Assembly (NCBI RefSeq): GCF_963921235.1 | Contig: NC_086097.1 | Location: 88,600,001 to 88,664,000 of the forward strand | Source of the DNA: Mobula hypostoma | Lineage: Eukaryota | Length of the DNA: 64,000 nt | Reading direction: 5' to 3' | In this document: piece by piece, positions 5,148-57,879 of the stretch | Numbering within the stretch: position 1 is the first letter of the stretch | Layout of the letters: each line of letters begins with the position of its first letter | The notes under the pieces: model-generated | What the model was told of the DNA's origin: nothing | What the model saw: the letters and a program-made list of their open reading frames with translations, nothing else | The model's database searches: none | Program-made: the position numbers and the translations under genes

Positions 5148-6044
5148 GTCTAGAGGCTCTGTGCACTTTATCCAACAGCATTGACTAAATGTCCTCGTAC
5201 TTCTTGCAATGAGTTTGCATCAATGCATTTGGAGTTACGAGAGGTGCATTACAAGGGCCTCTCAGTTAAATCCTGTGCTAGCTTTTCATACAGTTGAAAT
5301 GACTTAAAAGATCTCACATATAAATGACTTCTAGATTGTAATGATTATTATCTTGGCCAATTGGACAGCTATTGATCCCCAAGGCTGGAGGCCACACGCA
5401 ATTTCCTTAAATTTTACCATGTACTTCCCGAAGCAAATTTCTGTGATGGTTGCGCTAGGCTGTTTATTATCAATAAATACTATTGCCTTCCTAATTACTT
5501 GCTGTAGTGACTTGCTGAAAAATGTCCTAAAAGTGGAAAGTTGGGTAACAAGATGGGAAAATTTATAGGTTGGTAGCTGGAAGTGTACCCCCTGTGATAG
5601 GAAAGCAATTGCAGTTGAGTTCAGTTAAGGGGGCAGAAGTGCAGGAGCACAGATTTGCTGAGAGAACTGATGGGCTGAAGGTTGCCATAATAGGGAAGAT
5701 TGGAACTGTTACATTGAACAAACAAGAGCCAATGTAAGTCAGCAAGAAAAGAGTTGGCAGGTAAATACAAGATAAGACATGGGCAACAGTGTTTTGGACA
5801 ATCTTAACTAAAATTTTGGAGCTGCCTGTGAAGATCTGGAGGTGGTAAAGAGTTTCTGCAGAAGATGAGCTTACGCAAGGCAAAACTAGGTAACATTACA
5901 GGTGGGAATAGGTGGCTTTACGATGATGTAAGCAGATGGACAGAAGCTCACTTGGAGTGAGAGAAAACCCCGAAGTATAATAGCAATGCACACAATAAAC
6001 GCTGGTGAACGCAGCAGGCCAGGCAGCATCTATAGGAAGAGGTA

Positions 6045-6086
6045 CAGTCGACGTTTCGGACCGAGACCCTTCGTCAGGACTAACTG
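6045..6086 (-). ncRNA. Minimal type-I hammerhead ribozyme motif
   Basis: Minus strand CAGTTAGTC CTGACGA AGGGTCTCGGTCC GAAACGTC GACTG: intact CUGANGA/GAAA/UH core, helix I AGTC/GACT. Confidence 0.75.
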
Positions 6087-6164
6087 AAAGAAGAGATAGT
6101 AAGAGATTTGAAAGTGGGGGGGGAGGGGGAGATCTACTTTCAAATCTCTTACTATCTCTGCTTT

Positions 6165-6206
6165 CAGTTAGTCCTGACGAAGGGTCTAGGCTCGAAACGT
6201 CGACTG
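6165..6206 (+). ncRNA. Minimal type-I hammerhead ribozyme motif
   Basis: CAGTTAGTC CTGACGA AGGGTCTAGGCTC GAAACGTC GACTG. Confidence 0.75.
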
Positions 6207-7149
6207 TACCTCTTCCTAGAGATGCCGCCTGACCTGCTGTATTCACCAGCACTTTTTGTGTGTGTTGCTTGAATTTCCAGCATCTGCAGATTTCCTCATG
6301 TTTGCCCAAAGTATAATAGATTTGGTTCAGACGCTGGGTGAGTAAGTATAGCTTCTTATAGGAACTGGAGAGAATGGCTTCGGCTTTCTGAATACTGAGT
6401 TGAAGGAAATTTCTGTTTATCCAGCATTAGATAATGAAGAAGCAGTATGAAAATTTGTAGGAACTGGAGAGTTTGAGAAAGTGGTGATGAAACAGACTTA
6501 GCTGTCATCGAGAGCACTGTATGATGTTTTTGGATTTTCTTGCTGACGGGTATGTAAATGAGAAATGAGAAAGATATGTACTGTATGGGTAAGGGAAGAT
6601 GAGCCATTGCAGGTGATTCAACGGCTTGGAATGGATGGGAAAGAATTGGACTAGGTGGGAATGTCCCTATCCAACCAGACACTGGTGGTGAGGCATGCTG
6701 TACTCAATCACATGAAAGGCTGTAGACGCATTAAGAAGATGAGGGAGACTTTTGCCATTGTCACCATAAATCGACTAAAAATTGTGACCCTAATGAAAGC
6801 CTTTTCAGTTCCATATGTGGACGGAAAGCAAAAAGTTCAGGTAATAATTGGAAATGTCAGGCTTTATCATGAGAAGCTGGATTGCAAAAGTGGGGGGATA
6901 GATGCAGTTAAAAACTGTCAAGGTTAGATCCCATCAGGAGTGTTCACTCAGATTTGGGTTCCAAACCTCCAAGGGTATTATCCTGACCTTGATGCAGCAC
7001 ACATTCATCAGAATTAAATAAGGACTTCTGAAAAGAAAAAGCCAACGTGCATATGCACAGTGCCTCTTTAAGGAGCTTTTAGCAAACATTTTTTGTATAG
7101 TCACAGTTATAAGAAAGATGGCACAGCTAACTCCCACAAGCAACAGTAT

Positions 7150-8059: not shown

Positions 8060-8256
8060 ACATAAACACAAGAGATTCTGCAGATGCTGGAAATCTTGAG
8101 CAACACACACAAAATACTGGAAGAACTCGGCAAGTTGGGCTGCATCTGTGGAGGGGAGTAAACAGTCCAAGGTCTCAGCCTGAAACATCAACTGTTTATT
8201 CCCCTCGGTAGATACTGCCTGACTTGCTGAGTTCCTCCAGTGTTGCGTGTTTGTGT
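8060..8256. mobile_element. Older palindromic PLE terminal-repeat insertion
   Basis: Minus arm 8060-8167 and plus arm 8169-8256; 12-bp TSD atatcactgtaa at 8048-8059 and 8257-8268. Confidence 0.85.
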
Positions 8257-23929: not shown

Positions 23930-24032
23930 GAATCCTGATGAAGGGTCTTGGCTCTCATGTTGACTGCTAATTCCTCTCCTTAGATGCGGTCTGACATGAT
24001 AAGTTCCTCCATCATTTTGTATGTGTTGCTTC
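23930..24032 (+). mobile_element. Degraded PLE terminal repeat (decayed hammerhead)
   Basis: tcctgatgaagggtcttggctctcatgttgactg...gttcctccatcattttgtatgtgttgct; GAAA core lost. Confidence 0.7.
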
Positions 24033-27557: not shown

Positions 27558-27966
27558 TAGATGAGGCCACCCTCAGGGAGAGGAGCGACATCTTATATTC
27601 CGTCTGGGTACCCTCCAACCTGATGACATGACTATTGATTTCTCCTTCTGATGATCAAATCTCACCACCCACCTTCTTCCACTTCCCACTCAGACCTTTC
27701 ACTTTTTCTCACCTGCCTATTACTTACCTCTGGGCCCACTCTTTCTTACCTTTCTCCGATTTTCCACTCTCTTCTATCAGGGTCTTTCTTCTCCAACCCT
27801 TGACCTTACCCACCCACCTGGCTTCACCTAGCCTCTTTCCCCTCGCCCCAACCTTTTTATTCTGGCATCTTCCCCCTTCCTTCTCTGTCCTGATGAAAGG
27901 TTTACTTTTTTCCATAGCTGCTGCCTGACCAGCTGAGTTCCTCCAGCATTTTGTGTGTATTGCTTT
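27558..27966 (+). mobile_element. PLE 3' fragment (GIY-YIG C-terminus + terminal repeat; hammerhead partly deleted)
   Basis: gatgaggccaccctcagg..catcttatattccgtctgggtaccctccaacc (cf. HLIYRLGSLQP); ctgtcctgatgaaagg; ctgagttcctccagcattttgtgtg. Confidence 0.8.
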
Positions 27967-28376
27967 GAAATATAATGTGCTGTTCTGGCTGTAAAACTAA
28001 GGAGACTGCAGTGCAGCCAAAATGTACTGTGATTAACCTATAATGGTTTTAAGAGAAAATACTGAGTACTTAATTAGCTTATAAAAATTAACTTGGGAAG
28101 TTAAAAAGTAATGCAGTTCTGGACTATGATATGCCCTAGGAAAGGGCATCCTGAATAAGTTCAGTTGCTACATATAGATAACCTGCATTAAAAAAAATCA
28201 AAAATAAAAGTCTAGGTTATTGGATATTCTCAGTAGACTGGGTAGCAATTGAGTGGAAAATAAAATTCCTTGTTAATAACCTTTGTCCTTTGCAACTACT
28301 TTGTGGGGGCATTACCAATCACCATAACAAATAGGCTATTTAACTACAGCTGTTGCATCTCCTGCCTTTCTGCTCT

Positions 28377-29345
28377 CAACCCATCTCTTTGCAACCCACC
28401 TCTTCTCAATCCTTCTCTTCTCAACCCATCTCTTCTCAACCCATCTCTTCTCAACCCATCTCTTCGCAACCCATCTCTTCGCAACCCACCTCTTCTCAAC
28501 CCATCTCTTCTCAACCCATCTCTTCTCAACCCATCTCTTTGCAACCCATCTCTTTGCAACCCATCTCTTCTCAACCCATCTCTTCGCAACCCATCTCTTC
28601 GCAACCCACCTCTTCTCAACCCATCTCTTCTCAACCCATCTCTTCTCAACCCATCTCTTCGCAACCCATCTCTTCGCAACCCACCTCTTCTCAACCCACC
28701 TCTTCTCAACCCACCTCTTCTCAACCCATCTCTTCGCAACCCACCTCTTCTCAACCCATCTCTTCTCAACCCATCTCTTCTCAACCCATCTCTTCGCAAC
28801 CCACCTCTTCTCAACCCATCTCTTCGCAACCCACCTCTTCTCAACCCATCTCTTCTCAACCCATCTCTTCGCAACCCATCTCTTCGCAACCCACCTCTTC
28901 TCAACCCACCTCTTCTCAACCCACCTCTTCTCAACCCATCTCTTCGCAACCCACCTCTTCTCAACCCATCTCTTCTCAACCCATCTCTTCTCAACCCATC
29001 TCTTCGCAACCCACCTCTTCTCAACCCATCTCTTCGCAACCCATCTCTTCGCAACCCACCTCTTCTCAACCCATCTCTTCTCAACCCATCTCTTCGCAAC
29101 CCATCTCTTCGCAACCCACCTCTTCTCAACCCATCTCTTCGCAACCCATCTCTTCGCAACCCACCTCTTCTCAACCCATCTCTTCTCAACCCATCTCTTC
29201 GCAACCCACCTCTTCTCAACCCATCTCTTCGCAACCCACCTCTTCTCAACCCATCTCTTCTCAACCCACCTCTTCTCAACCCATCTCTTCTCAACCCATC
29301 TCTTCTCAACCCATCTCTTCACAACCCTTCTCTTTTTCAGCCCTT
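28377..29345. repeat. 15-bp minisatellite, ~64 units (CAACCCAYCTCTTCK)
   Basis: Tandem array read directly from the sequence; variant units translate as NPSLL/NPSLR/NPPLL/NPSLC. Confidence 0.98.
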
Positions 29346-29575
29346 CTCTTCTCAACCCTTCTCATTTGGAGCAGGGAAGTCCTCACCTCTCATCCCATCA
29401 GTCTCCACATTCAATGGACTTTCTTCCCTAATTTTTGACATCTCCAGTGTGGTGTCCCATCTGGACACATTATCCCTCTCCTCTTCCACAACATTCTTCA
29501 GGGATCATTTGTTCTATAACTTCCTGTTTCACTTTCCATTTTCACCAGTACCCACTTGATTTCCTGCAGCTAAAC

Positions 29576-32547: not shown

Positions 32548-32946
32548 AGAAGTCTTGATCCGATGCTAAGAGAACTCATTGAGTACTCCCTTATGTAGGG
32601 GTTTCTGTGTGATCTTCTCTTCAGAATATTCACTTCCTTAATCTCAGCTGCACACATTTCTGAAAGCTCAAAGGATTGTTACCATTATAATTTTCCATAA
32701 ACACGTAATGACTCAATGTCCATATTATAAGTCTACGTTAGTTCATCTTTAAGAATTTCTTTCTCAAAAACAGTTCTTGCTGTTTCCTTAATGCAAGTTT
32801 AACTCACTGTGTCTGTCACCATTAGTTCAACAGGACCGCTAAAGATAGCTGAAAATGTTCATTTCTTTCGCGGGGTGTTTGCTTTCATTTTGATGCAGTG
32901 CAGGATTATCATTCAGGTTTTCTGAAAACAAGTCTTGAAAGCAAGA

Positions 32947-33405
32947 CAGACAACATCCATACGAAGAAGCACTGTCGATATTTCAGGCCAAGACCCTTCG
33001 TCAGGACGAACTGAAAGAAGAGATAGTAAGAGATTCGAAAGTGGGAGGGGAAGGGGGAGATCCGAAATGATAGGAGAAGACAGGAGGGGGAGGGATGGAG
33101 CTAAGAGCTGGAAAGTTGATTGGCAAAAGGGATACGAGGCTGGAGAAGGGAGAGGATCATGGGGCGGGAGGCCTGGGGAGAAAGAAAGGGGGAGGAGAGC
33201 TCGCTCCTATCATTTTGGATCTCCCCCTCCCCCTCCCACTTTCAAATCTCTTACTATCTCTTCTTTCAGTTAGTCCTGACGAAGGGTCTCAGCTCGAAAC
33301 GTCGACTGTGCTTCTTCCTATGGATACTGTCTGGCCTGCTGCGTTCACCAGCATTTTGTGTGTGTTGCTTGAATTTTCAGCATCTGTAGATTTCCTCGTG
33401 TTTGC
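32947..33405. mobile_element. Palindromic PLE terminal-repeat insertion
   Basis: Minus arm ~32947-33195 and plus arm ~33203-33405; perfect 15-bp TSD gtcttgaaagcaaga at 32932-32946 and 33406-33420. Confidence 0.92.
33267..33308 (+). ncRNA. Minimal hammerhead ribozyme motif (a more mutated copy lies on the minus strand at 32972-33013)
   Basis: CAGTTAGTC CTGACGA AGGGTCTCAGCTC GAAACGTC GACTG. Confidence 0.7.
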
Positions 33406-33835
33406 GTCTTGAAAGCAAGAAAATGGTTGCGTATTGCTGTCTTCTTTTTGCCTAAGGATTAGTAATCTCACATTTTAGTTATAGAAAATTATATTCATCA
33501 GTTACATAATTTCACAATATAATAGTATACATATGAGGTGAGGTAATGAAGAGTGTAGTACTCCTGTTGAGGATTCAATAGGTACTTTTAATTCTGGATG
33601 CTCTGAACATGGGGGATGATGATGTCTCTCCCATGGGATTGAATACCCATTGGTGTGCTATAGCGTGGCATTCTGATACCACCCATCTTGTGATGGAGAG
33701 CACTCAGTAAACGCACTCCTTACACATGCGCATTGTCACACGCAAACAAACATTACCTTGTCATTCTGTGTCGTCGCGCTGAGTGTACGCACTTCAGTAA
33801 CTTTCCCCGGTATATTCAAATGACGGGTCCTACAG

Positions 33836-34070
33836 GCAACACACATCAAAGTTGCTGGTGAACGCAGCAGGCCAGGCAGCATCTCTAGGAAGAGGTACAG
33901 TCGACGTTTCAGGCCGAGATCCTTCGTCAGGACTAACTGAAGGAAGAGTGAGTAAGAGATTTGAAAGTGGGAGGGGGAGGGGGAGATCCAAAATGATAGG
34001 AGAAGACAGGAGGGGGAGGGATGGAGCCAAGAGCTGGACAGGTGATTGGCAAAAGGGATACGAGAGGATC
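33836..34070 (-). mobile_element. PLE terminal-repeat fragment with hammerhead motif at 33898-33939
   Basis: Minus strand cagttagtcctgacgaaggatctcggcctgaaacgtcgactg; same subfamily as the 6-kb and 33-kb copies. Confidence 0.85.
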
Positions 34071-34611
34071 TGTGATAGCGAGTCTGAGTCAAAATGTGGT
34101 CGAAAAGTTGAAGAGCAGAAGAAATTACAGATGGGGAGCAGTGAGAGATGGTTTCACTAAACTCCCGTCGAAGAGAGGATTGGCTTTATGGTGCCTTCCC
34201 CACCATGCACGGTGAAATATTCCATTGCTTTGTTCATGGGGATGTGTAAATGTGCATACCTGGTTCGTATTCAAGATAGCTACCTCTGTTTATTTGGTAA
34301 TATGTTTGTAACTGCATTGTTGGGTGCATCATATTCTCATTTATCTGTAATCTTAAGTTAACTTTGTGGGCAATTGAAGATAGTATGACCTGGTGCCTAA
34401 TAAGTGGGGTTCATCACTCTCAGTGTCAGAAAGAGATTGGACTGCCAGGAGTTCACACTGGACAAATATAGTATGGAGCTGTTATTGTGTTTTCTGGTAG
34501 GTATCCTTTTGTAGCTATTGGCAGCTTTCTTTTCACAATTCTTTGTAATTCTAATCTTTGTAAGCTTGATTTTTGACGCTTAACTGTTGTTTAAAAGTTG
34601 TAAAAGAGCGC

Positions 34612-37416
34612 CTGAAGGCTTTGTGTGTCAATGCAAGGAGCATTCGTAACAAGGTGGATGAATTGAAAGTGCAGATTGTTATTAATGATTATGATATAGT
34701 TGGGATCACAGAGACATGGCTCCAGGGTGACTAAGGATGGAAGCTCAATGATCAAGGATATTCAATATTCAGGAGGGATAGAAATGAAAGAAAAGGAGGT
34801 CGGGTAGCATTGCTGGTTAAAGATGAGACTAACACAATAGAAAGGAAGGACATAAGCCGGGAAGATGTGGAATCGATATGGGTAGAGCTGCATAACACTA
34901 AGGGGCAGAAAACGCTGGTGGGAGTTGTCTACAGGCCACCTAACAGTAGTAGTGAGGTCAGAGATGGTATTAAACAGGAAATTAGAAATGTGTGCAATAA
35001 AGGAATATAAGTTATAATGGGTGACTTCAATCTACATGTAGATTGGGTGAACCAAATTGGTAAAGGTGCTGAGGAAGAGGATTTCTTGGAATGTATGCGG
35101 GATGGTTTTTTGAACCAACATTTCGAGGAACCAACTAGAGAGCAGGCTATTCTAGACTGGGTTTTGAGCAATGAGGAAGGGTTAATTAGCAATCTTGTCG
35201 TGAGAGGCCCCTTGGGTAAGAGTGACCATAATATGGTGGAATTCTTCATTAAGATGGAGAGTGACATAGTTAATTCAGAAACAAAGGTTCTGAACTTAAA
35301 GAGGGGTAACTTTGAAGGTATGAGTCGTGAATTAGCTAAGATAGACTGACAAATAACACTTAAAGGGTTGACGGTGGATATGCAATGACAAGCATTTAAG
35401 GATTGCATGGATGAACTACAACAATTGTTCATCCCAGTTTGGCAAAAGAATAAATCAAGGAAGGTAGTGCACCCGTGGCTGACAAAAGAAATTAGGGATA
35501 GTATCAATTCCAAAGAAGAAGCATACAAATTAGCCAGAAAAAGTGGCTCACCTGAGGACTGGGAGAAATTTAGAGTTCAGCAGAGGAGGACAAAGGGCTT
35601 AATTAGGAAGGGGAAAAAAGATTATGAGAGAAAACTGGCAGGGAACATAAAAACTGACTGTAAAAGCTTTTATAGATATGTAAAAAGGAAAAGACTGGTA
35701 AAGACAAATGTAGGTCCCCTACAGACAGAAACAGGTGAATTGATTATGGGGAGCAAGGACATGGCAGACCAATTGAATAATTACTTTGGTTCTGTCTTCA
35801 CTAAGGAGGACATAAATAATCTTCCAGAAATAGTAGGGGACAGAGGGTCCAGTGAGATGGAGGAACTGAGCGAAATACATGTTAGTAGGGAAGTGGTGTT
35901 AGGTAAATTGAAGGGATTAAAGGCAGATAAATCCCCAGGGCCAGATGGTCTGCATCCCAGAGTGCTTAAGGAAGTAGCCCAGGAAATAGTGGATGCATTA
36001 GTGATAATTTTTCAAAACTCGTTAGATTCTGGACTAGTTCCTGAGGATTGGAGGGTGGCTAATGTAACCCCACTTTTTAAAAAAGGAGGGAGAGAGAAAC
36101 CGGGGAATTATAGACCGGTTAGCCTAACAGTGGTGGGGAAACTGCTGGAGTCAGTTATCAAAGATGTGATAACAGCACATTTGGAAAGCGGTGAAATCAT
36201 CAGACAAAGTCAGCATGGATTTGTGAAAGGAAAATCATGTCTGACGAATCTCATAGAATTTTTTGAGGTTGTAACTAGTAGAGTGGATAGGGGAGAACCA
36301 GTGGATGTGGTATATTTGGATTTTCAAAAGGCTTTTGACAAGGTCCCACACAGGAGATTAGTGTGCAAACTTAAAGCACACGGTACTGGGGGTAAGGTAT
36401 TGATGTGGATAGAGAATTGGTTAGCAGACAGGAAGCAAAGAGTGGGAATAAACGGGACCTTTTCAGAATGGCAGGCAGTGACTAGTGGGGTACCGCAAGG
36501 CTCAGTGCTGGGACCCCAGTTGTTTACAATATATATTAATGACTTGGATGAGGGAATTAAATACAGCATCTCCAAGTTTGCGGATGACACGAAGCTGGGC
36601 GGCAGTGTTAGCTGTGAGGAGGATGCTAAAAGGATGCAGGGTGACTTGGATAGGTTGGGTGAGTGGGCAAATTCATGGCAGATGCAATTTAATGTGGATA
36701 AATGTGAAGTTATCCACTTTGGTGGCAAAAATAGGAAAACAGATTATTATCTGAATGGTGGCCGATTAGGAAAAGGGGAGGTGCAACGAGACCTGGGTGT
36801 CATTATACACCAGTCATTGAAAGTGGGCATGCAGGTACAGCAGGCGGTGAAAAAGGCAAATGATATGCTGGCATTTATAGCGAGAGGATTAGAGTACAGG
36901 AGCAGGGAGGTACTACTGCAGTTGTACAAGGCCTTGGTGAGACCACACCTGGAGTATTGTGTGCAGTTTTGGTCCCCTAATCTGAGGAAAGACATCCTTG
37001 CCATAGAGGGAGTACAAAGAAGGTTCACCAGATTGATTCCTGGGATGGCAGGACTTTCATATGAAGAAAGACTGGATGAACTAGGCTTGTACTCGTTGGA
37101 ATTTAGTAGATTGAGGGGGGATCTGATTGAAACGTATAAAATCCTAAAGGGATTGGACAGGCTAGATGCAGGAAGATTGTTCTCGATATTGGAGAAGTCC
37201 CGAACGAGGGGTCACAGTTTGAGGATAAAGGGGAAGCCTTTTAGGACTGAGATTAGGAAAAACTTCTTCACACAGAGAGTGGTGAATCTGTGGAATTCTC
37301 TGTCACAGGAAACAGTTGAGGCCAGGTCATTGGCTATATTTAAGAGGGAGTTAGATATGGCCCTTGTGGCTACGGGGATCAAGGGGTATGGAGGGAAGGC
37401 TGGTGCAGGGTTCTGA
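34612..37416 (+). pseudogene. CR1 ORF2 (APE endonuclease + reverse transcriptase), single frame with 4 internal stops; element 3' UTR extends to ~37508
   Basis: [77 protein letters not shown] all in one frame; stops at 34732, 35008, 35347, 35386; tail ttctatatttctatgt. Confidence 0.97.
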
Positions 37417-37699: not shown

Positions 37700-39758
37700 A
37701 AAGCGTCCCAAGATAGAATCTTATCAACAATGTGATGAGTTTGGGAACTATCACCTCAGGTTCAAGAGGATGGCCCAGATGAGGGGATGGCCAGAGAAGG
37801 AGTGGGTCTGCCAACTAGTGCCACTGCTGATGGATAAAGCTCTCAAAGCCTACGCTGCAATGGATGAAGAAAGGTCCAACAACTATCCTGGCCTGAAGGA
37901 GGCGCTGCTGGCTCAACTTAATATCTCAGCAGAAACCTATCATCAACGCTTCCATTCCAGTACACTACATCGGGTGAGTCACCCATGGAAACGTATCATT
38001 GCCGAGGGGTCTCAACTGGCAATGGATTCAACCAGAGCAGATGTCCAAGGAGGAGATTAGTGAGGCTATTGTTCTGGAGCAGGTGCTGTGGGTTCTTCCT
38101 CCATATACCCGAGCATGGGTCCGGTCCAAGAGGACGAGCCAGCGGATGGACTCACTGCAGTACCTCGATACCTGTAAGGGGGCACCATCACACCATCATT
38201 CTGAAGGAACGGTAACTCTAAAACACCAAGAGACTCTCAGGTTAACTCTGCTGAACTGGAGACTGGGAGAAACAAGGGCAAAGGACCTTTAGTGGTTTCT
38301 TCTAAGACTTTTATTTGCTGCCATTGTCAGCAGCCAGGTCATACGTCCTCTCTGTGAACTGTCAAGAAGTCCAAATTGTCAGGTGTGTGCTACGTACCAA
38401 GAAAATGAGAACGTGATGATGCTGATAATGACTGTAATGGTTGTGAGTATGTTTTTAGAAAACAAGCAGACTGTGAGAAGAAAGAGCCGGTGTTTATAAT
38501 AGTCACAATTAATGGAAAACCTGGTAAAGCTCTTTTAGATTCTGGTAGGTCACAGTCATTTATTAGGAAAATTCATGCCCCTGCCTTTGGGTTGACCACA
38601 GTCACCAAACACCTGTCCATTGTGTCCATGGTGACTGGAAGTCTGGGCCACTGGCACACTCACCATTGAACTGGATGACCACAAGTATTATGATGAAAGT
38701 GGGGATGCTGGAGCAACACCATTTGACCTGATTCTGGGGAGAGATTTGTCTGTGTTACATGAGTTACTGAAGAAGAAAAATAGCCAATCACGTTTATCTA
38801 TTAATCCAGAAGTAGATAATGCTGTTTCCCATTTTGTTGTGACTTGTGCTAAAACCAAGCAATAGCCGGGTTACAATACCTGCCTGACTTGAATGCTATT
38901 CTGTGTGAGGGAGGAACCAAAAGGCCTAGAAAGTCATGCCAGCAGTGGCGCCATGGGAAATGTGGTGGTTTTCCTGCCTCTGTTGTTAACTGTACCCATG
39001 ACGTACCCGTTGACAGTGACTCTGAAGGGGTCGCGGAGGCCTGGGGAATTTGAACTCTCCCACCTTGATGGCTGCCAACCAGTGGAGCTTCAGATGGTGC
39101 TGATTTTCCACTGCTGTTTCAGCAGAGACCTGGGCTGACAAAGCTCCTGAAACATTCCACCAGGATCAGACCTGACAAGTGTCCAGTGTGCCAGCACTGC
39201 TACAAGGCCCCAGAGTCACTTGTGAGGGCCCTAAAGGATGCAGTTCGGACCATGCTGGAGCTGGGTATCATCGAGCCTTCAAATACTGAGTGGAGCAGTC
39301 CTATCGTTATCGTCTCAAGAAGGATGGCATGCTGAGGGTATACACAGTTGATTGCCGTTTCTTTTTTGATGCTTATCCTATGCTCCGTTTTGATGGCCTA
39401 CTAGAAAGGGTTTGACAAGCAAACTACATTCCTACCCTGGACCTTTGTAAAGGCTGCTGGCAGGTTCCCCTGTACGATCAATCAAAATCCCTCACTGCAT
39501 TCCGTACATTCCTGGGTCTGTTTCAATTCACCATGAAGCCCTTTGATCTTCATGGTGCACCGGCAACATTCCAGTGGATGATGGACTGGGTGATCCAAGA
39601 CTGTAAGGACTGCAGTGTGGCCCATCCAGATCCAGATTGTCTACAGCCAGACATGCTCAGAGCACCTGGACCATCTGCGCAGGGTCCTGGGGAATATTCG
39701 TGCTGCTGGACTCACCCTCATTCTACAAAAATGTGAGTGGGCAACAAGGGAAACTAGA
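37700..39758 (+). mobile_element. Decayed Gmr1-like Ty3/Gypsy retrotransposon (SCAN-like gag, CCHC knuckle, protease, RT N-half)
   Basis: RMAQMRGWPEKEWVCQLVPLL..ETYHQRF; IVLEQVLWVLP..RAWVR; CCHCQQPGH (~38317); VTINGKPGKALLDSG (~38500); LGIIEPSNTEWSSPIVIV; PFDLHGAPATFQ. Confidence 0.85.
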
Positions 39759-39759
39759 T

Positions 39760-41311
39760 CAACATTCACAACATGCTGGAGGAACTCAGCAGGTCGGGCA
39801 GCATCTGTGGAAGCGATCAGTCAACGTTTCGGGCCGGAACCCTTCGTCAGGACCATAGGGGGAAGGGGCAGAGGCCCTATAAAGAAGGTGGGGGGAGGGT
39901 GGGAAGGAGAAGGCTGGTAGATTCCAGGTGAAAAACCAGTAAGGGGAAAGATAAAGGGGTGGGAGAGGGGAAGCAGGGAGGTGATAGGCAGGAAAGGTGA
40001 AGAAGGAATAGGGGAAAACACAATGGGTAGTAGAAGGAGGCAGAACCAAGAGGGAGGTAGTAGGCAGCGGGGGGGGCGGGGGCGGGCAGAGTGACATAGG
40101 GATAGGGGAAGGCAGGGGGAGGGAATTACCGGAAGTTGGAGAATTCTATGTTCATACCAAGGGGCTGGAGACTACCTAGACGGTATATGAGGTGTTGCTG
40201 CTCCAACCTGAGTTTAGCCTCATCATGGCAGTAGAGGAGGCCATGTATGGACATATCTGAATGGGAGTGGGAAGCAGAGTTGAAGTGGGTGGCTACTGGG
40301 AGATCTTGTCTGTTTTGGCAGACGGAGCGGAGGTGCTCGACAAAACGGTCCCCCAATATGCGTCGGGTTTCACTGATGTAGAGGAGGCCACACCAGATGC
40401 AATAGATGACCCCAACAGACTCACAAGTGAAGTGTTGCCTCACCTGGAAGGACTGTTTGGGGCCGTGAATGGTGGCAAGAGAGGAGGTGTAGGGTCAGGT
40501 GTAGCACTTGTGCTTACAGGGATAAGTGCCGGGTGGGAGATCTGTGGGGAGGGACGTGTGGATCAGGGAGTCGCGGAGGGACCGATCCCTGTGGAAAGCG
40601 GAGAGGGGTGGAGAGGGAAAGATGTGCCTAGTGGTCGGGTCCTGTTGAAGGTGGCGGAAATTGCGGAGGATAATGTGCTGGATCCGGAGGCTGGTGGGGT
40701 GGTAGGTGAGGACAAGGGGAACTCTGTCCCTGTTGTGGTGGCGGGAGGATGAGGTGAGGGCCGAAGTGCCGGAAATGGAGGAGATGCAGGTGAGGGCATC
40801 ATTGATGATGGCAGAAGGGAAACCATGATCCTTGAAGAAAGAGGACATTTGAGATGTCCTGGAACGGAAAGTCTCATCCTGGGAGCAGATGCGGCGGAGT
40901 CGGATGAACTGGGAACAGGGAATGGCATTTTTGCATGTGGCAGCATGGGAAGAGGTATAGTCGAGGTAGTTATGAGAGTCAGTGGGCTTGTAGTGGATGT
41001 CAGTGGACAGTCTGTCTCCAGGGATGGAGACCGAGAGATCGAGAAAGGGGAGCGAAGTGTCTGAGATAGATGAAGTGAATTTAAGGGCTGGGTGGAAATT
41101 TGAAATAAAGTCGATAAAATTGACGAGCTCAGCATGGATGCAGGAAGCAGCACCAATGTAGTCGTCAATATAGCGAAGGAAAAGTTGGGGAGCAGTACCA
41201 GAACAGGTTTGGAGCACAGACTGTTCCACATAACCAACGAAGAGGAAGGCATAGCTGGGGCCCATGCGAGTGCCCATAGCTACACCCCTGGTCTGAAGAA
41301 AGTGGGAAAAC
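39760..41311 (-). mobile_element. Penelope-like element (Neptune-type), 5'-truncated: RT C-half, Cys linker, GIY-YIG endonuclease, terminal repeat
   Basis: GVAMGTRMGPSYA, FLRYIDD, LPFLD, YKPTD..YLDY (ORF 40495-41313); YPCKHKCYT linker; VIYCIWC..LYISET..RFVEH..VATHF..GMN (ORF 40126-40443). Confidence 0.95.
39818..39856 (-). ncRNA. Hammerhead ribozyme motif in the PLE 3' terminal repeat
   Basis: Minus strand GGTC CTGACGA A GGGT TCCG GCCC GAAACGTT GACTG. Confidence 0.8.
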
Positions 41312-41313
41312 AA

Positions 41314-44300
41314 TATAAACTAGAATTGTTGGGGAGTGGGAACTGAACTGAAGAGACTGGGGAAGAGGCAGTTGGCTCACAAATAGAGAAAGCTTAGAGA
41401 CAGTGATGAGGAGAGATAGGCAAGTGATAGAGAAGGGATGCGCTCAGACCAACGGTTTGAGATGTGTCCATTTTAACGCAAGGAGTATTGTGAACAAAGC
41501 GAATGAGCTTAGAGGGTGGATCAGTACTTGGAGCTATGATGTGGTGGCCATTACAGAGACTTGGATGGCTCAGGGACAGGAATGGTTACTTCAAGTGCCA
41601 GGTTTTAGATGCTTCTGAAAGGACAGGGAGGGAGGCAAAAGAGGTGGGGGCATAGCACTGTTGATTAGAGATAGTCACGGCTGCAGAAAAGGTGGACGTC
41701 ATGGAGGGATTGTCCAAGGAGTGTCTGTGGGTGGAGGTTAGGAACAGGAAGGGGGTCAATAAATTTACTGGGTGTTTTTTACAGGTCGCCCAATAGTAAC
41801 AGGGATATTGAGGAGCAGATAGAGAAACAGATCCTGGAAAGGTGTAATAATAACAGAGTTGTCGTGATTGGAGATTTTAATATCCCAAATATCAATTGGC
41901 ATCTCCCTAGAGCAAGGGGTTTAGATGCGGTGAAGTTTGTTAGGTGTGTTCAGGAAGGTTTCTTGACACAATATGTAGATAAGCCTACAAGAGGAGAGAT
42001 TATACTTGTTTTGGTATTGGGAAATGAACCTGGTCAGGTGTCAGGTCTCTCAGTGGGAGAGCATTTGGGAGATAGTTATCATAATTCTATCTCCTTTACA
42101 ATAGCATTGGAGAGAGATAGGAACAGACAAGTTAGAAAAGCATTTAATTGGAGTAAGGGGAATTATGAGGCTATCAGGCAGAAAATTGGAAGCTTAAATT
42201 GGGAACAGAGAGTTCTCATGGAAAAGTACGGAAGAAATGTGGCAAATGTTCAGGGGATATTTGTGTGGAGTTCTGCATAGCTACGTTCCAATGAGACAGG
42301 GAAGTTATGGTAGGGTACAGGAACCGTGGAATACAAAGGCTGTAATAGATCTAGTCATGAAGAAAAGAAAAGCTTACGAAAGGTTCAGGGAGCTAGGTAA
42401 TGTTAGAGATCTAGAAAATTATAAGGCTAACAGGAAGGAGTTTAAGAAGGAAATTAGGAGAGCCAGAAGGGGCCATGAAAAGGCCTTGGTGGGCAGGATT
42501 AAGGAAAACCCCAAGGCATTCTACGTGAAGAGCAAGAGGATAAGACATGAAAGAATAGGACCTATCAAGTGTGATAGTAGGAAAGTGTGTATGGAACCGG
42601 AGGAAATAGCAGAGATAATTAATGAATACTTTACTTCAGTATTCACGATGGGAAAAGGACCTTGGTGATTGTAGTGATGACTTGCAGCAGACTGAAAAGC
42701 TTGAGCATGTAGATATTAAGAAAGAGGATGTGCTGGAGCTTTTGGAAAGCATCAAGTTGGATAAGTCGCCGGGAAAGGATGAGATGTACCCCTGGCTACT
42801 GTGGGAGGCGAGGGAGAAGATTGCTGAGCCTCTGGCGATGATCCTTGCATCATCAATGGGAATGGGAGAGGTTCCGGATGATTGGAGGGTTGCAGATGTT
42901 GTTCCTTTATTCAAGAAATGAAGTAAAGATAGCCCAGGAAATTATAGACCAGTGAGTCTTAGTTCAGTGGTTGGTAAGTTGATGGAGAAGATCCTGAGAG
43001 GCAGGATTTATGAACATTTGGAGAGGTATAATATGATTAGGAGTAATCAACAGGGCATTGTCAAGGGTAGGCCGTGCCTTACGAGCCTGATTCAATTTTT
43101 TGAGGATGTACCTAAACACGTTGATGAAGGAAGAGCAGTAGATGTAGTATATATGGATTTTAGCAAGGCATTTGATAAGATACCCCATGCAAGGCTTATT
43201 GAGAAAGTAAGGAGGCATGGGATCCAAGAGGACATTGCTTTGTGGATCCAGAATTGGCTTGCCCACAGAAGGCAAAGAGTGGTTGTAGATGGGTCATATT
43301 CTGCATGGAGGTTGGTGACCAGTGGTGTGCCTCAAGGATCTGTTCTGGGACCCTTACTCTTCGTGATTTTTATAAATGATCTGGATAAGGAAGTGGAGGG
43401 ATGGATTAGTAAGTTTGCTGATGACACAAAGGTTGGAGGTGTTGTGGATAGTGTGGGACGGCTGTCAGAGGTTACAGTGGGACATTGATAGGATGGAAAA
43501 CTGGGCTGAGAAGTGGCAGATGGATTTCAATCCAGTTAAGTGTGAAGTGGTTCAATTTGGTAGGTCAAATATGATGGCGGAATATAGTATTAATGGTAAG
43601 ACTCTTGGCAGTGTGGAGGATCAGTGGAATCTTGGGGGTCCAAGTCCGTAGGACACTCAAAGCAGCTGCGCATGTTGACTCTGTGGTTAAGAAGGCATAC
43701 GGTGTATTGGCCTTCATCAATCGTGGGATTGAATTTAGGAGCCGAGAGGTAATGTTGCAGCTATATAGGACCCTGGTCAGACTGCACTTGGAGTACTGTG
43801 CTCAGTTCTGGTTGCCTCACTACAGGAAGGATACGGAAACCATAGAAAGGGTGCAGAGGAGATTTACAGGGATGCTGCCTGGATTGGGGAGCATGCCTTA
43901 TGAAGACAGGTTGAGTGAACTCAGCCTTTTCTCCTTGGAGCGACAGAGGATGAGAGATGACCTGATAGAGGTGTATAAGATGATGAGAGGCATTGATTGT
44001 GTGGATAGTTAAAGGCTATTTCCCAGGGCTGAAATGGTTGCCACAAGAGGGCACAGGTTTAAGGTGCTGGGGAGTAGGTACAGAGGAGATGTCAGGGGTA
44101 AGTTTTTTTACGCAGAGAGTGGTGAGTGCGTGGAATGGGCTGCCAGCAACGGTGGTGGAGGCGGATACAATAGGGTCTTTTAAGAGACTTTTGGATAGGC
44201 ACATGGAGCTTAGAAAAATAGAGGGCTATGGGTAAGCCTAGTAATTTCTAAGGTAGAGACATGTTCGGTACAACTTTGTGGGTTGAAGGGCCTGTATTGT

Positions 44301-45553: not shown

Positions 45554-45715
45554 AAACAACAGGAATTCTGCAGATGCTGGAAATTCAAGCAACACACGTC
45601 AAAGTTGCTGGTGAACACAGCAGGCCAGGCAGCATCTCTAGGAAGAGGTGCAGTCGACGTTTCAGGCCGAGACCCTTCGTCAGGACTTGACGTTTCAGGC
45701 CGAGACCCTTCGTCA
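45554..45715 (-). mobile_element. Short PLE terminal-repeat insertion with a tandem partial hammerhead duplication
   Basis: TSD tcacaccatccac at 45541-45553 and 45713-45725; full hammerhead 45651-45687 plus partial copy 45689-45715. Confidence 0.92.
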
Positions 45716-50028: not shown

Positions 50029-50128
50029 GTCATCATACTTTAGTAACTTACACCAATGCTTAGAATCACGCACTGAAAAATAAAATGAACGCATAGTGCC
50101 TCAAATTGAATGGACTTCCCATCAAACT

Positions 50129-50974
50129 CCCTGATCCACACGTCCCTCCCCACAGAACTCCCACCTGGCACTTACCCTGTAAGTGCAAGTGCTACACCTG
50201 TCCCTACACCTCCTCTCTTGCCACCATTCAGGGCCCCAAACAGTCCTTCCAGGGCAGGCAACACTTCCTTGTGAGTCTGTTGGGGTCATCTATTGCATCC
50301 AGTGCTCCCAATGTGGTCTCCTCTACATCCGTGAATCCCGACGCAGATTGGGGGACCGCTTCGTCGAGCATCTCCGCTCCGTCCGCCACAACAGACAGAA
50401 TCTCCCAGTAGCCACCCACTTCAACTCTGCTTCACATTCCCATTCAGATATGTCCATACATGGCCTCCTCTACTGCCATGATGAGGCTAAACTCAGGTTG
50501 GAGGAGCAACACCTCATATACCATCTAGGTAGTCTCCAGCCTCTGGGTATGAACTCTGAATTCTCCAACTTCCAGTAATTCCCTCCCCCTCCCTTCCCCT
50601 ATCCCAGTTTCACTCTGCCCCCTCCCCCAGCTGCCTACTACCTCCCTTATGGTTCAGCCTCCTTCTACTACCCATTGTGCTTTCCTCTATTCCTTCTTCA
50701 CCTTTCCTGCATATCCTCTCCCTGCTTCCCCTCCCCCACCCCTTGATCTTTCCGCTTACTGGTTTTTCACCTGGAACCTACCAGCCTTCTCCTTCCCACC
50801 CTCCCCCCACCTTCTTTATAGGGCCTCTGCCCCTTCCCTCTTCAGTCCTGATGAAGGGTTCCGGCCCGAAATGTTGACTGATCGTTTCCACGGATGCTGC
50901 CCAACCTGCTGAGTTCCTCCAGTGCGTTGTGAGTGTTGCTTTGACCCCAGCATCTGCAGATTATTTTGTGTTTA
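50129..50974 (+). mobile_element. PLE 3' portion (Cys linker, GIY-YIG endonuclease, terminal repeat)
   Basis: CKCKCYTCP; VIYCIQCSQCGLLYIRES..RFVEH; TSD ccatcaaact at 50119-50128 and 50975-50984; same family as 39760-41311. Confidence 0.95.
50843..50880 (+). ncRNA. Hammerhead ribozyme motif
   Basis: CAGTC CTGATGA A GGGT TCCG GCCC GAAATGTT GACTG; perfect 5-bp helix I; helix III CpG decayed. Confidence 0.75.
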
Positions 50975-52239
50975 CCATCAAACTGATTTGCTGATGACTT
51001 TAAGAACACCATCGAGTGGTTTCTTTTTCACTTAATGATTACATTGCCATCTCTCTTAACTGCACAACTCTGCTGTCAACTTTCATAACAAAATGTGTGC
51101 TTCACAGCCCTCATGTGAGCATCCCTTTCACCAGGAGCAATAGTGTTTCTGTGGAAGTTTAAGTGCTGTATTTCCAGGTCACAATTTATAGTTTGGCAGA
51201 TTATGTTGACAATTCTGGAAGTTATTCAATGATCTGGGAAATTTGCAAGCTGCATCCAATTTCTCAGTTCTTTGAGTAACTACTTGGAGTATTCCTGTAA
51301 TTATACCAATTAATTAAAACTGTCATCAAAAGGAAAAAGCACATTAGCCTAATACTCAGTATGTCTGGCCAAGCACTAGGCCCAAGGAGGAGTCTAGTGA
51401 GTTTGAATATCAAATGGATAACAGATGGCAAGAAATTATGCATGATCTAATGGGAAATTATACAGGAGCACATATTTATACAGCACCTTTAATACCAATG
51501 CTTCAGAGGAACATTATTATAGAAGAATGTTGAGTAATTGATAGATTTGTTCCATTTTGTCTCAAAACATCTGATTTATTGTGGAGAAAATCAGTAAGGA
51601 TTTCTGTAAAAGGGTGTCATCCTGTGATCTTCACTGCGAGGACAATATTAATTGGGTCTGATTCACTCGGATACTTGGACAGACCAGTAGGAAACCCAGC
51701 TGAAAATCATCAACCTGTAGGATTTTTAAAAAGTAGCGTAAAAATCCATGGAAAACATCAAATAAGTAGGGTTGAAAAAAGTAAAAGCTAAATTTATACC
51801 TGCTTAAGTACAAAGTGCTGTCGATAGAATGCATCTTGCTGGGAAGTGGGGAGGAAGGAGGTTAAGATGTCGGACACTGTTGGAGCTCGAGGGTAGCTTA
51901 GAACTAAGCTAACAATCAGACGCCAGCCAAGTCTAAAATCCTTTCTACCCTACTCATGCCAATTGTCTGCTTTTACTTATCTCTGCATTCACTGCTTCTG
52001 TGTGGAAGGCATCAGAAGTTGTAATGTGTTTTGGAACTTGACCAGGAAGTATTTGCTTTGTATACAAAGTGCCACAGACATTATCCAATTTCTTAGTCTC
52101 TGAGATGCTTCCTGGCATTTACCATATATTGCCAGCAAAGGGAAACTCACATTTGCCTAATTTTCACACTGAACATCGAGCCAAGATGTGGGTGCAAAGA
52201 GACGGTTAATCAATCTGTATGCCAAATGGGAAGAAAGTT

Positions 52240-52427: not shown

Positions 52428-52456
52428 AAAGTGGACAGAGTACTAACAATGAAACA

Positions 52457-52585
52457 TGACGAAGGGTCTCGGCCTGAAACGTCGACTGCGCCTCTTCCTA
52501 TAGATGCTGCCTGGCCTGCTGCGTTCACCAGCAACTTTGATGTATGTTGCTTGAATTTCCAGCATCTGCAGAATTCCTGTTGTTT
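52457..52585 (+). mobile_element. Short PLE terminal-repeat copy starting inside the hammerhead core
   Basis: tgacgaagggtctcggcctgaaacgtcgactg...gaattcctgttgttt. Confidence 0.88.
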
Positions 52586-52699
52586 ACTACAACAAAATGT
52601 AGCAGTGATGCAGAAAGTGCTTGAGGAGTTCAGGTATGCTAGTGGAGAGAAAATAATGAACGTTTCACATCATTGATATTTGGCACTGATTCTGTTTCT

Positions 52700-53950: not shown

Positions 53951-54206
53951 TAGAAACATAGAAACATAGAAAATAGGTGCAGGAGTAGGCCATTCGGCCC
54001 TTTGAGCCTGCACCGCCATTCAGTATGATCATGGCTGATCATCCAACTCAGAACCCCATACCTGCCTTCTCTCCATATCCCCTGATCCCTTTAGCCACAA
54101 GGGCCATATCTAACTCCCTCTTAAATATAGCCAATGAACTGGCTTTAACTGTTTCCTGCGGCAGAGAATTCCACAGATTCACCACTCTCTGTGTGAAGAA
54201 GTTTTT
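53951..54206 (-). mobile_element. CR1 3' fragment inserted in the Gypsy leader
   Basis: Close match to 37258-37508 (NFFTQRVVNLWNSL..; tail (tagaaaca)n on plus strand). Confidence 0.93.
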
Positions 54207-54212
54207 CACAGC

Positions 54213-57200
54213 ATGAACGACTCGGCTGTGCAGAATGCAGTTTCCCTTAAACTGCCAACCTTCTGGACCACTCAAACCCTAGTCTGGTTCAAGCAAGCAG
54301 AGGCCCAGTTCCAAGTCAGGCAAATTGTCTCAGATGCCACCAGATATTACTACATGGTGGGTACCCTCGACCAGGAGACAGCAGGCCGCGTTATTGACTT
54401 TCTGCATCAGGCCCCAGCAACAGACAGCTACAAGGCACTCAAGGCCCTGTTAATCCGCACATTTGGCCTCTCCCATCGCGATCAAGCCACGCGGTTACTG
54501 CATATGGACAGCCTGGGCGACCGCGCGCTATCAGCCCTGATGAGCGACATGCTAGCACTGGCAGACGGCCATAAGCCTTGCCTGCTTTTTGAACAGATCT
54601 TCCTGGAGCAAATGCCAGAAGACATCCACCTTCTACTAGCAGATGGAGACTCAGAGGCCCGCACAGGGTGGCAGCCCGCACGGACGTGCTTTGGCGCGCC
54701 AAACAAAATGGCGGAACCACCAACAAAATTAGTGCTGCGGCACGGCCGAAAGTCCAGCCCTCCCACACCCCAGCAGCGGAGCACCGAACACCCACACCAA
54801 GGGACAGCACCACTTCTGAGTCTTGGTGTTTTTATCATCAAAGGTGGGGTTCCAGGGCCCGCCGCTGCCAACCGCCATGCTCATTCCAGCGAAACGCCAG
54901 GACCAGCCGTCGCTGATGGCTACGGCGGCTGGTCACCGTGATAGCCTCCTCTACGTTTGGGACAAGCACTCCGAGCATAGATTCCTGGTGGTCATGGGGC
55001 GGAAATCAGTGTCCTACCCCCCTCAAGCCACGATACCCGAACTAGAAGAACAGGACCGGAACTTACGGCAGCCAACAGCAGCACCATCCGCACCTATGGC
55101 ACAAGAACCATCCCCTTGCAGTTCAGTTCTAGCCGCTTTACATGGACATTTATGCTGGCCGCAGTATCACAGCCATTGCTAGGTGCGGACTTCCTCCGTG
55201 CGCACTGCCTGCCCGTGGATTTGAAGGGACAACGATTGGTCGATGCGAAGACGTTCCAGACTTCCTCCCTTGATGAAGTCAGGTTACCGGCCCCGCACCT
55301 GGACTCCGTCACTTATTCCGACAACGAGTTCGCCAGAGTGTTATCAGAGTTCCCATCTATCATCATGCCGCAGTTTTCCTCAACAAACCCCAAGCACGGC
55401 ATGATGCACCACATCCCCACACAGGGACCTCCTCTTCATGCCCAGGCCCGCAGGCTGCCGCCCGACAAGCTCCGGCTCGCAAAAGAGGAATTCAAGAAGA
55501 TGGAGGAGATGGGGATTGTGCAGCGTTCCGACAGCCCGTGGGCCTCCCCACTCCATATGGTGCCCTAGTCTGCGGGAGGGTGGAGACCATGCGGCAACTA
55601 TAGGAGGCTGAAAGGCACCACCACGTCCAATCGCTATCCGGTACCACACATCCAGGACTTTATGGCCAACCTGCACGGGGCGCGCATCTTTTCGAAGATT
55701 GACCTGGTCCGAGGGAATCATCAGATCCCAGTCCACCCAGACGATGTACCCAAGACGGCCCTCATTACCCCCGTTGGCCTGTTCGAGTTCCTCAGGATGC
55801 CATTCGGGCTCAAAAACACGGCGCAGACGTTCCAGTGCCTGATGGACGGAGTAGGGCGAGATCTGGACTTTCTGTTCATCTACCTGGATGACATACTTAT
55901 CACCAGTCGCTCCCACCAGGAACATCTAGCACATTTCCGCCTGCTCTGCCACTGCCTAAGCGACTACGGCCTGGCTATCAACCCTGCCAAGTGCCAGTTT
56001 GGCCTACCCACCATTGACTTCTTGGGACACCAGATCGACCGCCATGGAGCTGTGCCCCAGCCGTAAAAGTTGAAGCCATCCACCAATTCGCCAGGCCCAG
56101 CACTGTTAAAGGCCTGCAGGAATTTGTTGGGATGGTTAACTTTTATCACTGTATCCTATCCTCAGCGGCCCCTTCTCGGCTTGATGTCCGGCAAGGTCAA
56201 AGAGGTCACCTGGACAGAGGAGGCGACGGTGGCTTTTGAACAAGCCAAGAACATACTAGCAAGCACCATGCTCCTAGTCCACCCCCAGGTCGACGTCCCC
56301 ACTGCCCTCACTGTGGAAGCCTCCAAAGTGGCAGTTGGCGGCGTGCTCGAGCAGCTCATCGAAGGCCAGTGGAAGCCGCTCGCTTTTTTCAGCTGACACC
56401 TACAACCTCCGGAACTTAAGTACAGCGCTTTTGACAGGGAGCTGCTGGCCCTGTACCTTGCCATCCGGCACTTCAGGTATTTCCTGGAAGGGAGGGAGTT
56501 CACGGTCTTCACAGACCACAAGCCCCTCACTTTCACGTTTGCCAAAGTGTCGGACTCGTGCTCAGGCCGCTAGCAATGCCACCTGTTGTACATCTCTAAG
56601 TCTACCACCATGATCAAGCACATCTCCGGGAAGAACAACATGGTAGCCGACGCACTGTCATGCGCCTCCGTCCAATCAGTGCACTCTCTGTCTGGAGAGT
56701 GGATTACGCGGCGTTAGCTAAGGCGCAACGACTGGATAGCGAGATGCCGGTGTACCGAACCGCAGTCTCAGGACTCCACCTCGAAGACATACCCATGGGC
56801 CCGAAGGTAATGAGCTCCCTTGAGATGTGCCCACCAGGCAACCTTGGCCCATTGTCCCAACCGCTTGGAGGTGCTGCGTTTTCAATACCTTGCACGGTTT
56901 AGCACACCCTTCCATCTGGCTGATCGCAGACAGGTTTGTGTGGCACGGCCTATGCAAACAGGTTGGGCACTGGGCCAGGACGTACACACACTGTCAAACC
57001 TCCAAAGTCCAGAGGCACGTGAGGGCCCCACTGCAACCCTTCCAGCCTACACATAGGGGGTTTGAACATGTCCACATGGACATCATCGGCCCACTGCCGA
57101 TTTCGAGAGGAGCGAGATACCTGTTCACCATGGTGGACAGGTTCACGAGGTGCCCAGAAGCCATCCCACTCGCTGACACAGCCACGGAGACATGCGCCAG

Positions 57201-57879
57201 AGCCCTGATTACCACCTGGGTGACACGGTTCGGACTCCCAGCCCATGTCACTTCAGACAGGGGTGTGCACTTCACATCGGCTTTGTGGTCTGCACTGGCA
57301 CAACTCCTCGGAATCCAGCTCCACCGAACGACTGCTTACCACCCGCAGTCCAACGGCCTGGTGGAACGTTTCCACAGGCACTTGAAGTCAGCCCTGATGG
57401 CACACCTTCGAGGGCCAGACTGAGTTGACAATCTCCCCTGGGTGCTGCTTGGCATCCGCACAGCACCCAAGGAGGACCTGGCTGCATCATCAGCCAAACC
57501 TGTTTACGGTGCCCTGCCCACAGTTCCTGGTGAGTTTGTGCCAGCACCCCGTGGCTAGGAGGACACACCTACGGCAGTCCTAGCTAAACTCCGGGAGTGG
57601 CTTGGAACACTTGCCCCAGTCCCGATGTCCCATCACGGAACAACACCCTCTTTCATGCCCAAGGACCTACAACAGAGCAAGTATGTTTTCGTTTGCCGAG
57701 GTGTGCACAGACCACCCCTGCAGCGACCATACAAAGGACCCTACGAGGTGCTGCGCCATAATGGGATGACCTGCATTCTCGACATCGGCGGTCATGAAGA
57801 GACTTTTACCATTGACCGTCTCAAACCGGCGCATCTAGACCTTGAACGCCCGGTTGCGGTGCCACCCCCACGACGATGA
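54213..57879 (+). pseudogene. Gypsy gag-pol, disrupted by frameshifts and stops
   Basis: ORF pieces at 54213, 55116, 55662, 56070, 56827, 57625 in the order gag-PR-RT-RH-IN. Confidence 0.93.

Follow-up and report, generated by a model that had tools for sequence, protein, structure and literature searches.

The window, as the whole 64-kb stretch of DNA under analysis is termed here, carries a 5'-truncated Penelope-like element (PLE) on the minus strand. The element retained the C-terminal half of the reverse transcriptase (RT) and the Cys-rich linker (40495 to 41308, truncated near 41308), followed by a GIY-YIG endonuclease (EN) region (40126 to 40494) in which the frame is shifted near 40495 and the CxxC motif carries a small deletion. 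Downstream of these lay a pyrimidine-rich 3' UTR, the part of the pseudo-LTR (pLTR) upstream of the ribozyme (39857 to 40125), then the ribozyme motif (39818 to 39856) and the short form of the PLE tail (39762 to 39817), with which the insertion ends on its 3' side. Where the unit is full-length, the tail sequence is the 5' UTR that precedes the ATG. Alignment to a full-length copy, L279, gave 91% identity over 1,560 nt. A target duplication was looked for around this element and none was resolved. The element (39762 to 41308) is flanked by an LTR-retrotransposon-like fragment and a LINE.

Direct reading of the minus strand from 39856 to 39818 gave GGTC-CTGACGA-A-GGGT(TCCG)GCCC-...-GACTG, in letter-for-letter agreement with the hammerhead described in the initial annotation. 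The same reading placed C3 at 39850, an extra A at 39843, helix II at 39842 to 39831 and the GAAA box at 39830 to 39827; the predicted cut falls between 39823 and 39822. The motif is a minimal type I hammerhead of sub-lineage B1, with a UCCG loop and a GUU triplet, and its helix I has only 4 bp, compared with 6 bp in the B1 lineage. The EN stop codon was located at 40126 to 40128, 270 nt from the motif, as had been estimated.

The copies in the window and in a genome sample contained the CUGANGA and GAAA boxes and an NUH triplet. Helix I had at least 3 bp (3 to 6 bp depending on the lineage), and helix II carried the G10.1-C11.1 pair, with the exception of one family A sub-lineage that had G-U at this position. 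An unpaired base between positions 9 and 10.1 and a palindromic 15.2-16.2 segment (ACGU) were also present. An Rfam scan at E≤5 returned 13 matches, none of them to hammerhead families, and the motif was filed under the published class of minimal hammerhead ribozymes (PMC4209133). It shares with that class a CUGANGA box with one unpaired base, a G...C helix II, a GAAA-palindrome-UH segment and a short helix I, as well as the setting: a pyrimidine-rich upstream sequence, presence in both pLTRs, mostly solo copies and close pairs on opposite strands. It differs from the class in its helix II, which has only 4 bp and a tetraloop. A published Neptune ribozyme of Acropora is built in the same way, with other bases in helices I and II. 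The PLE origin, minimal form and palindromic helix III that had been proposed all held against the published consensus and element anatomy. The extra A is real, but it is not a peculiarity of this family, being part of the published consensus (PMC4209133). By every feature that could be compared at the sequence level, the motif is the known minimal hammerhead of PLE pLTRs; its class, location and extra base, and the idea that it acts as a dimer, had already been published.

Pfam did not match GIY-YIG on the window piece 40126 to 40494 alone, and a PDB search gave no RT match at E≤0.1. A first look through the genome (3.48 Gb) with the RT fragment gave 122,191 candidates, of which the 146 that were scored were 85 to 90% identical, the window copy excepted. 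Twenty long-frame copies were fetched, and 14 of them yielded a frame under the filter. One of the longer copies, L093, encodes RT plus a C-terminal GIY-YIG domain in a single 749-aa frame (RVT_1, E = 8e-7; GIY-YIG, E = 6e-4; both just under the Pfam cut-offs). The long-frame copies contained a DKG motif, RT motifs, a CX3CxxC linker and a GIY-YIG domain with Cys and His pairs, an anatomy described for Neptune and Nematis elements in PMC8557442. A CX2-5CxxC linker combined with a CCHH endonuclease, as found here, is characteristic of the Neptune clade, and on these motifs the element is likely to belong to it.

In the available portion of Craig et al. 2021 (PMC8557442), EN+ Neptune elements share with this element the single frame with a C-terminal GIY-YIG domain, the DKG motif, the CX3CxxC linker, a Cys pair between GIY and YIG and two downstream His residues, together with partial tandems, inverted 5' stumps and an optional tail of 30 to 40 bp. 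Nematis also has a linker motif in common, so far as that portion goes, and the Neptune assignment made here is one from motifs. Partial tandems of the pLTR, inverted 5' stumps and an optional tail were likewise found in the present genome. Of 30 loci walked in the 5' direction, 14 had an upstream ribozyme in sense orientation about 370 nt before the anchor, which is a partial tandem.

The full unit is about 3.55 kb long and consists of a ribozyme, the tail, an ATG at about +162 from C3, one RT-GIY-YIG frame, the 3' UTR, and a second ribozyme and tail. Both pLTRs were recovered in 7 of 14 refetched stretches; the two ribozymes were 3,529 to 3,652 nt apart in five of these, and 3,191 and 4,178 nt apart in the other two. 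An open frame running through the ribozyme into the ORF was considered and rejected, since it was not kept between sub-lineages and the GUU triplet creates a stop. The tail between +45 and +130 from C3 was 76% identical between families, compared with 57% for the other flanks, and was predicted to form stem-loops; it is a candidate protein-binding and priming structure.

Elsewhere in the window, a loose core pattern matched 16 times against 4.94 expected, a number reached in none of 100 shuffles; eight of the 16 matches were this motif. A fuzzy search with the 39-mer found nine copies (6045-, 6168+, 32972-, 33270+, 33898-, 39818-, 45651-, 50842+ and 52450+). A profile search added a partial copy at 45689 to 45715 and three decayed copies, at 23930 (E = 3e-4), 8171 (E = 0.011) and 27887 (E = 1.1); the tail of the last matched well at 27908 to 27968. 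All three had been annotated, at 23930, 8169 and 27888. With paired copies counted as single insertions, there are about seven young insertions.

Five of these window insertions belong to family A. At 5985 to 6308, two head-to-head pLTR stumps with hammerheads at 6045 to 6083 (minus strand) and 6168 to 6206 (plus strand) form a single insertion inside an 11-bp target duplication. The stump at 45556 to 45715 (minus strand), in which the hammerhead at 45651 to 45689 follows a partial core, is likewise a single insertion with its partial partner, inside a target duplication of 13 to 14 bp. The inverted pair at 32940 to 33409, with hammerheads at 32972 to 33010 (minus strand) and 33270 to 33308 (plus strand), is likely to be a third such paired insertion, although a clear target duplication was looked for there and none was found. 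The remaining two are a 3' stump at 33833 to 34070 (minus strand; hammerhead at 33898 to 33936) and a stump at 52457 to 52590 (plus strand) that begins within the core. A second B1 insertion at 50126 to 50975 (plus strand) comprises EN, the 3' UTR, a hammerhead (50842 to 50880) and a long tail; both B-group copies in the window were of the B1 form. The decayed copies span 23930 to 24028 (plus strand), 8063 to 8245 (an inverted tail pair on both strands with a core relic) and 27887 to 27968 (plus strand; core mostly deleted, tail clear). The statement that the same fold recurs at these sites was sustained in part: seven of the nine copies passed a lenient test of intactness, but C3 and the 5' helix I strand are missing from the copy at 52450, and helix II of that at 33898 has a mismatch.

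Several other features were recorded in the window. A piece at 34070 to 34181 (minus strand) resembling a PLE ORF start, 82% identical to family B, is fused directly to the family A stump (33833 to 34070) at the 5' end of the latter and represents a scrambled 5' junction. LINE-type elements, which we take to be CR1-like, lie on the plus strand at 35389 to 37416, with an uninterrupted 675-aa frame (RVT_1, E = 1e-32), and at 41352 to 44235, where the element is broken. Broken LTR-retrotransposon-like fragments lie on the plus strand at 37701 to 39736 and 54138 to 57423, with weak RVT_1 similarity at 39416, DUF7041 at 54138 and an integrase core at 56824. Long open frames at 28374 to 29363 are due to a tandem repeat of period 15 in about 66 copies.

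Genome-wide, a strict pattern for the intact core had 26,153 exact matches, compared with one for the reversed control; its TCCG form had 3,213 matches and the control none. For an estimate of density, large contigs were sampled at round positions, 10 kb at a time, to give 80 stretches. These contained 83 profile matches of at least 20 bits (1.04 per 10 kb, SE 0.12; reversed control maximum, 7.5 bits); a structural descriptor accepted 24 of them and the strict pattern 12. Because the sample was about twice as dense as the genome mean, totals are given as ranges: 180,000 to 360,000 relics and 50,000 to 100,000 descriptor-passing motifs. The strict count exceeds the roughly 4,000 copies reported for coelacanth and 9,000 for Xenopus (PMC4209133), although the methods differ. 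The motif was also present in assembled contigs of four runs from four other organisms, contigs that show neither ends nor strand and come from runs of which none is recorded as RNA.

Type I hammerheads derived from PLE pLTRs are also found in the non-LTR retrozymes of Li et al. (bioRxiv 10.64898/2026.07.22.740005), which the accessible part of that preprint reports from one chondrichthyan genome; the retrozyme counts published reach 14,255 copies at most. As described there, retrozymes are tandem arrays, whereas the copies analysed here terminate autonomous elements and are scattered; the window held no tandem repeat in which every unit had a complete hammerhead, and its copies were dispersed or inverted. 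The sole array seen, at L174:278-1035 (G000 C5), repeats 13.5 times a 56-bp unit derived from an old ribozyme relic, with helix II and the palindrome broken in the unit; from its sequence it is likely to be an inactive array resembling those of retrozymes.

Lineages could be assigned to 330 of 334 distinct copies. Family A has a CUCG loop and GUC in 120 of 135 copies, and the B group a UCCG or UUCG loop. GUU was present in 28 of 32 B1 copies, whereas GUC prevailed in B2 (24/26), B3 (9/14) and B4 (21/22). The two subfamilies of the initial annotation thus differ in loop and flanks and keep a common core, as was proposed, but GUU is not a property of all TCCG copies and is fixed in B1 only. Simple CpG decay was rejected as the origin of GUU in B1, where the T was present in 28 of 32 copies and the following G was lost in none of 32; in A, B2 and B4, GUU fits CpG decay.

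Comparison of the majority sequences of A and B1 showed identity at 29 of 29 structured positions and at 25 of 44 flank positions (57%; Fisher P = 1.5e-5), at approximately 77% (EN) and 71% (RT) identity. The core was thus more conserved than its flanks across subfamilies, the opposite of what the initial annotation had named as a refuting outcome. The recurring changes between lineages were those in loop II, N7, H17 and one G-C to G-U change at the base of helix II, and an older family (about 61% EN identity) kept the core apart from CpG decay. A different pattern was seen within insertions. At non-CpG, non-polymorphic sites of 30 young tail-anchored family A copies, changes were found at 8 of 658 core sites (1.2%), 10 of 779 upstream flank sites (1.3%) and 13 of 360 spacer sites, while core CpG sites were changed in 33 of 236 cases; the motif was intact by the lenient test in 20 of the 30 copies. 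Inserted copies decay neutrally. Conservation between lineages together with neutral decay of insertions therefore indicated that selection acted on active masters and not on insertions. The very large population of ribozymes that had been postulated is present, as the 26,153 exact cores show, but it consists of neutrally decaying passengers and is not a pool of working host ribozymes.

In half of the 30 family A copies, a T occupied the position that pairs with G10.1, and the adjoining G was rarely lost. These sequences suggest that a family A master may have amplified while carrying G-U at the usually fixed G10.1-C11.1 pair. Helices varied little in this genome: a compensatory helix I pair was found in nine copies, of which a single local cluster supplied five, whereas changes on one side only numbered 100 and 199, and helix II covariation was never seen. 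A putative compensatory sub-lineage, B5, was rejected as a local duplication cluster. Near-identical PLEs at about 97.1 to 98.1 Mb of G000 C1 (L156, L157, L166 and L221-L225), several with a swapped helix I pair, form a cluster that looks like a segmental duplication. Conservation by itself does not tell whether catalysis or a sequence signal is being kept.

In the predicted fold of the isolated motif, helices I and II form, but the core box pairs with CGUC or CGUU to give an inactive rod; adding 35 nt from upstream abolished both helices. The upstream tract was rejected as a dedicated off-switch, since 5 to 63% of shuffles disrupted the fold equally or better. Nearest-neighbour energies, in which neither magnesium nor tertiary contacts are counted, favoured two misfolded monomers (-20.4 to -29.0 kcal/mol) over the double hammerhead (-13.5 to -22.5 kcal/mol) by 6.5 to 10 kcal/mol in all five copies. 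This predicted disadvantage of the double hammerhead fits the published absence of monomer cleavage and weak dimer cleavage (PMC4209133), as well as the protein-assisted cleavage, dispensable for insertion, that is described in the available part of Frangieh et al. 2024 (PMC11167929).

The ends of insertions were then compared with the predicted cut. The 3' ends were bimodal: in family A they fell at +87 to +100 in 52 of 115 copies and at +122 to +135 in 47 of 115, and family B was similar. This distribution matches the two internal priming sites found in vitro for PAc, the Anolis Poseidon element, in the accessible text of Frangieh et al. 2024 (PMC11167929), in which reverse transcription starts inside the tail. 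As given there, PAc shares with the present element a tail defined by two 3' ends some 35 nt from each other, a ribozyme upstream of both ends, and no ends at the cut site; the PAc ORF begins within the ribozyme, whereas in the present element the tail is non-coding and the ATG follows some 162 nt downstream. For 5' junctions, copies were anchored on the tail alone, and the 67 of 331 that were kept are young and not pattern-selected. One junction fell at the scissile bond (+27 to +29), none at +14 to +26, 18 at -14 to +13 and 14 at -15 to -180; 27 copies extended beyond about -195 and seven junctions were in the spacer or at the anchor edge. When only the random stretches and the window were counted, 11 of 42 junctions were at the 5' edge and one at the bond. 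The near-absence of junctions at the scissile bond therefore suggests that the ribozyme was intact or re-joined in the templates. Jumping between templates at the cut site was rejected: none of 75 copies whose upstream sequence was of family A proved to be an A/B chimera, and N17 remained linked to markers downstream. Microsatellite targeting was not seen at the two resolved junction pairs.

The explanation that we consider probable is that the motif is the minimal hammerhead of the pLTR of a PLE, likely of the Neptune clade, which is conserved between lineages, is predicted to cut rarely and as a dimer, likely with the aid of protein, and persists in insertions as a neutrally decaying 3' passenger. 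Reverse transcription would begin inside the tail, as for the anole PLE in vitro, on a template RNA in which the ribozyme is uncut or re-joined. Because the monomer is predicted to misfold, with its core box paired to CGUC, cutting would need two molecules that swap helices I and III. The likely task of the ribozyme would be the trimming of element RNA from read-through or tandem transcripts.

A circular template, proposed in PMC4209133, would account for part of the same evidence: both pLTRs would be cut, the unit RNA ligated to an obligatory circle, and reverse transcription around the circle would produce the partial tandem. The lack of a junction pile-up at the cut site is compatible with such a route, as is the variable length of the upstream pLTR (about 20 to 575 nt). 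In the seven elements for which pLTR pairs were compared, the two pLTRs differed by 4.7 to 7.5% in six, much as unrelated copies of one sub-lineage do (5.4 to 7.2%), so that identity at birth is allowed. All of these points, however, fit an uncut tandem transcript equally well. In two of the seven elements (L278 and L281) the pLTRs differed at the sub-lineage markers -6 and +36, which is not expected from one circle, although this is a weak point. Furthermore, uncut RNA was the dominant in-vitro template for the anole PLE, according to the portion of Frangieh et al. 2024 that is accessible (PMC11167929). An obligatory circle is therefore considered unlikely.

A second alternative is that the 29 nt are kept chiefly as a non-catalytic signal for the RNA start (a transcription start, splice acceptor or protein-binding site) and that cutting is vestigial. 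The 18 of 67 junctions at -14 to +13 correspond to about five times the upstream rate (P = 9e-6, for an interval picked after seeing the data), a pyrimidine tract and CAG precede helix I in the lineages seen, and in D. virilis the promoter is published as internal with an intron that ends at helix I; the lack of covariation in this genome points the same way. However, seven of the 18 edge junctions adjoin an inverted copy, and fold-back at insertion could create the cluster; the 5' junctions showed no upstream exon in common. The tolerated changes are almost confined to positions at which hammerheads tolerate change, and the helices covary across phyla in the alignment of PMC4209133. We regard a mainly non-catalytic role as distinctly improbable. 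That the dispersed copies serve the host, for instance by cleaving transcripts in which they lie, has in its favour the 26,153 exact cores, the 20 of 30 intact young family A copies and the motif in contigs of four other organisms, but is very improbable indeed, given that the core decays at the upstream-flank rate with 33 of 236 core CpG sites changed, that monomers are predicted to be inactive and that nearby pairs are mostly inverted and so cannot share one sense transcript.

The pLTR hammerhead belongs to a class that was already known, and what is new here is the scale and the statistics. No report on PLE hammerheads of sharks or rays was found in the literature searched, a search to which subscription journals, Repbase and Dfam were external, and the supplement file of PMC4209133 that was searched had no cartilaginous-fish entry. 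Craig et al. 2021 (PMC8557442), in the available portion, describe the function of PLE hammerheads as unclear. Conservation between lineages and neutral decay after insertion indicate that the motif is of importance while the element retrotransposes but no longer once it has inserted, and the insertion ends point to a template that was not cut, or was re-joined, at the ribozyme, with a hotspot at the ribozyme 5' edge.

That insertions begin at this edge rather than at the cut is an open lead. It is possible, though we rather doubt it, that the pLTR hammerhead marks the RNA start and does not process the template. A promoter would then lie just upstream, transcripts would run from helix I, and mini-insertions of 100 to 140 bp, made of ribozyme plus tail, would arise in the hundreds of thousands by reverse transcription from the 5' tail. 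If this reading were true, the genome would hold the largest hammerhead census among the published counts compared, and insertion ends alone could discriminate between uncut, circular and start-site models.
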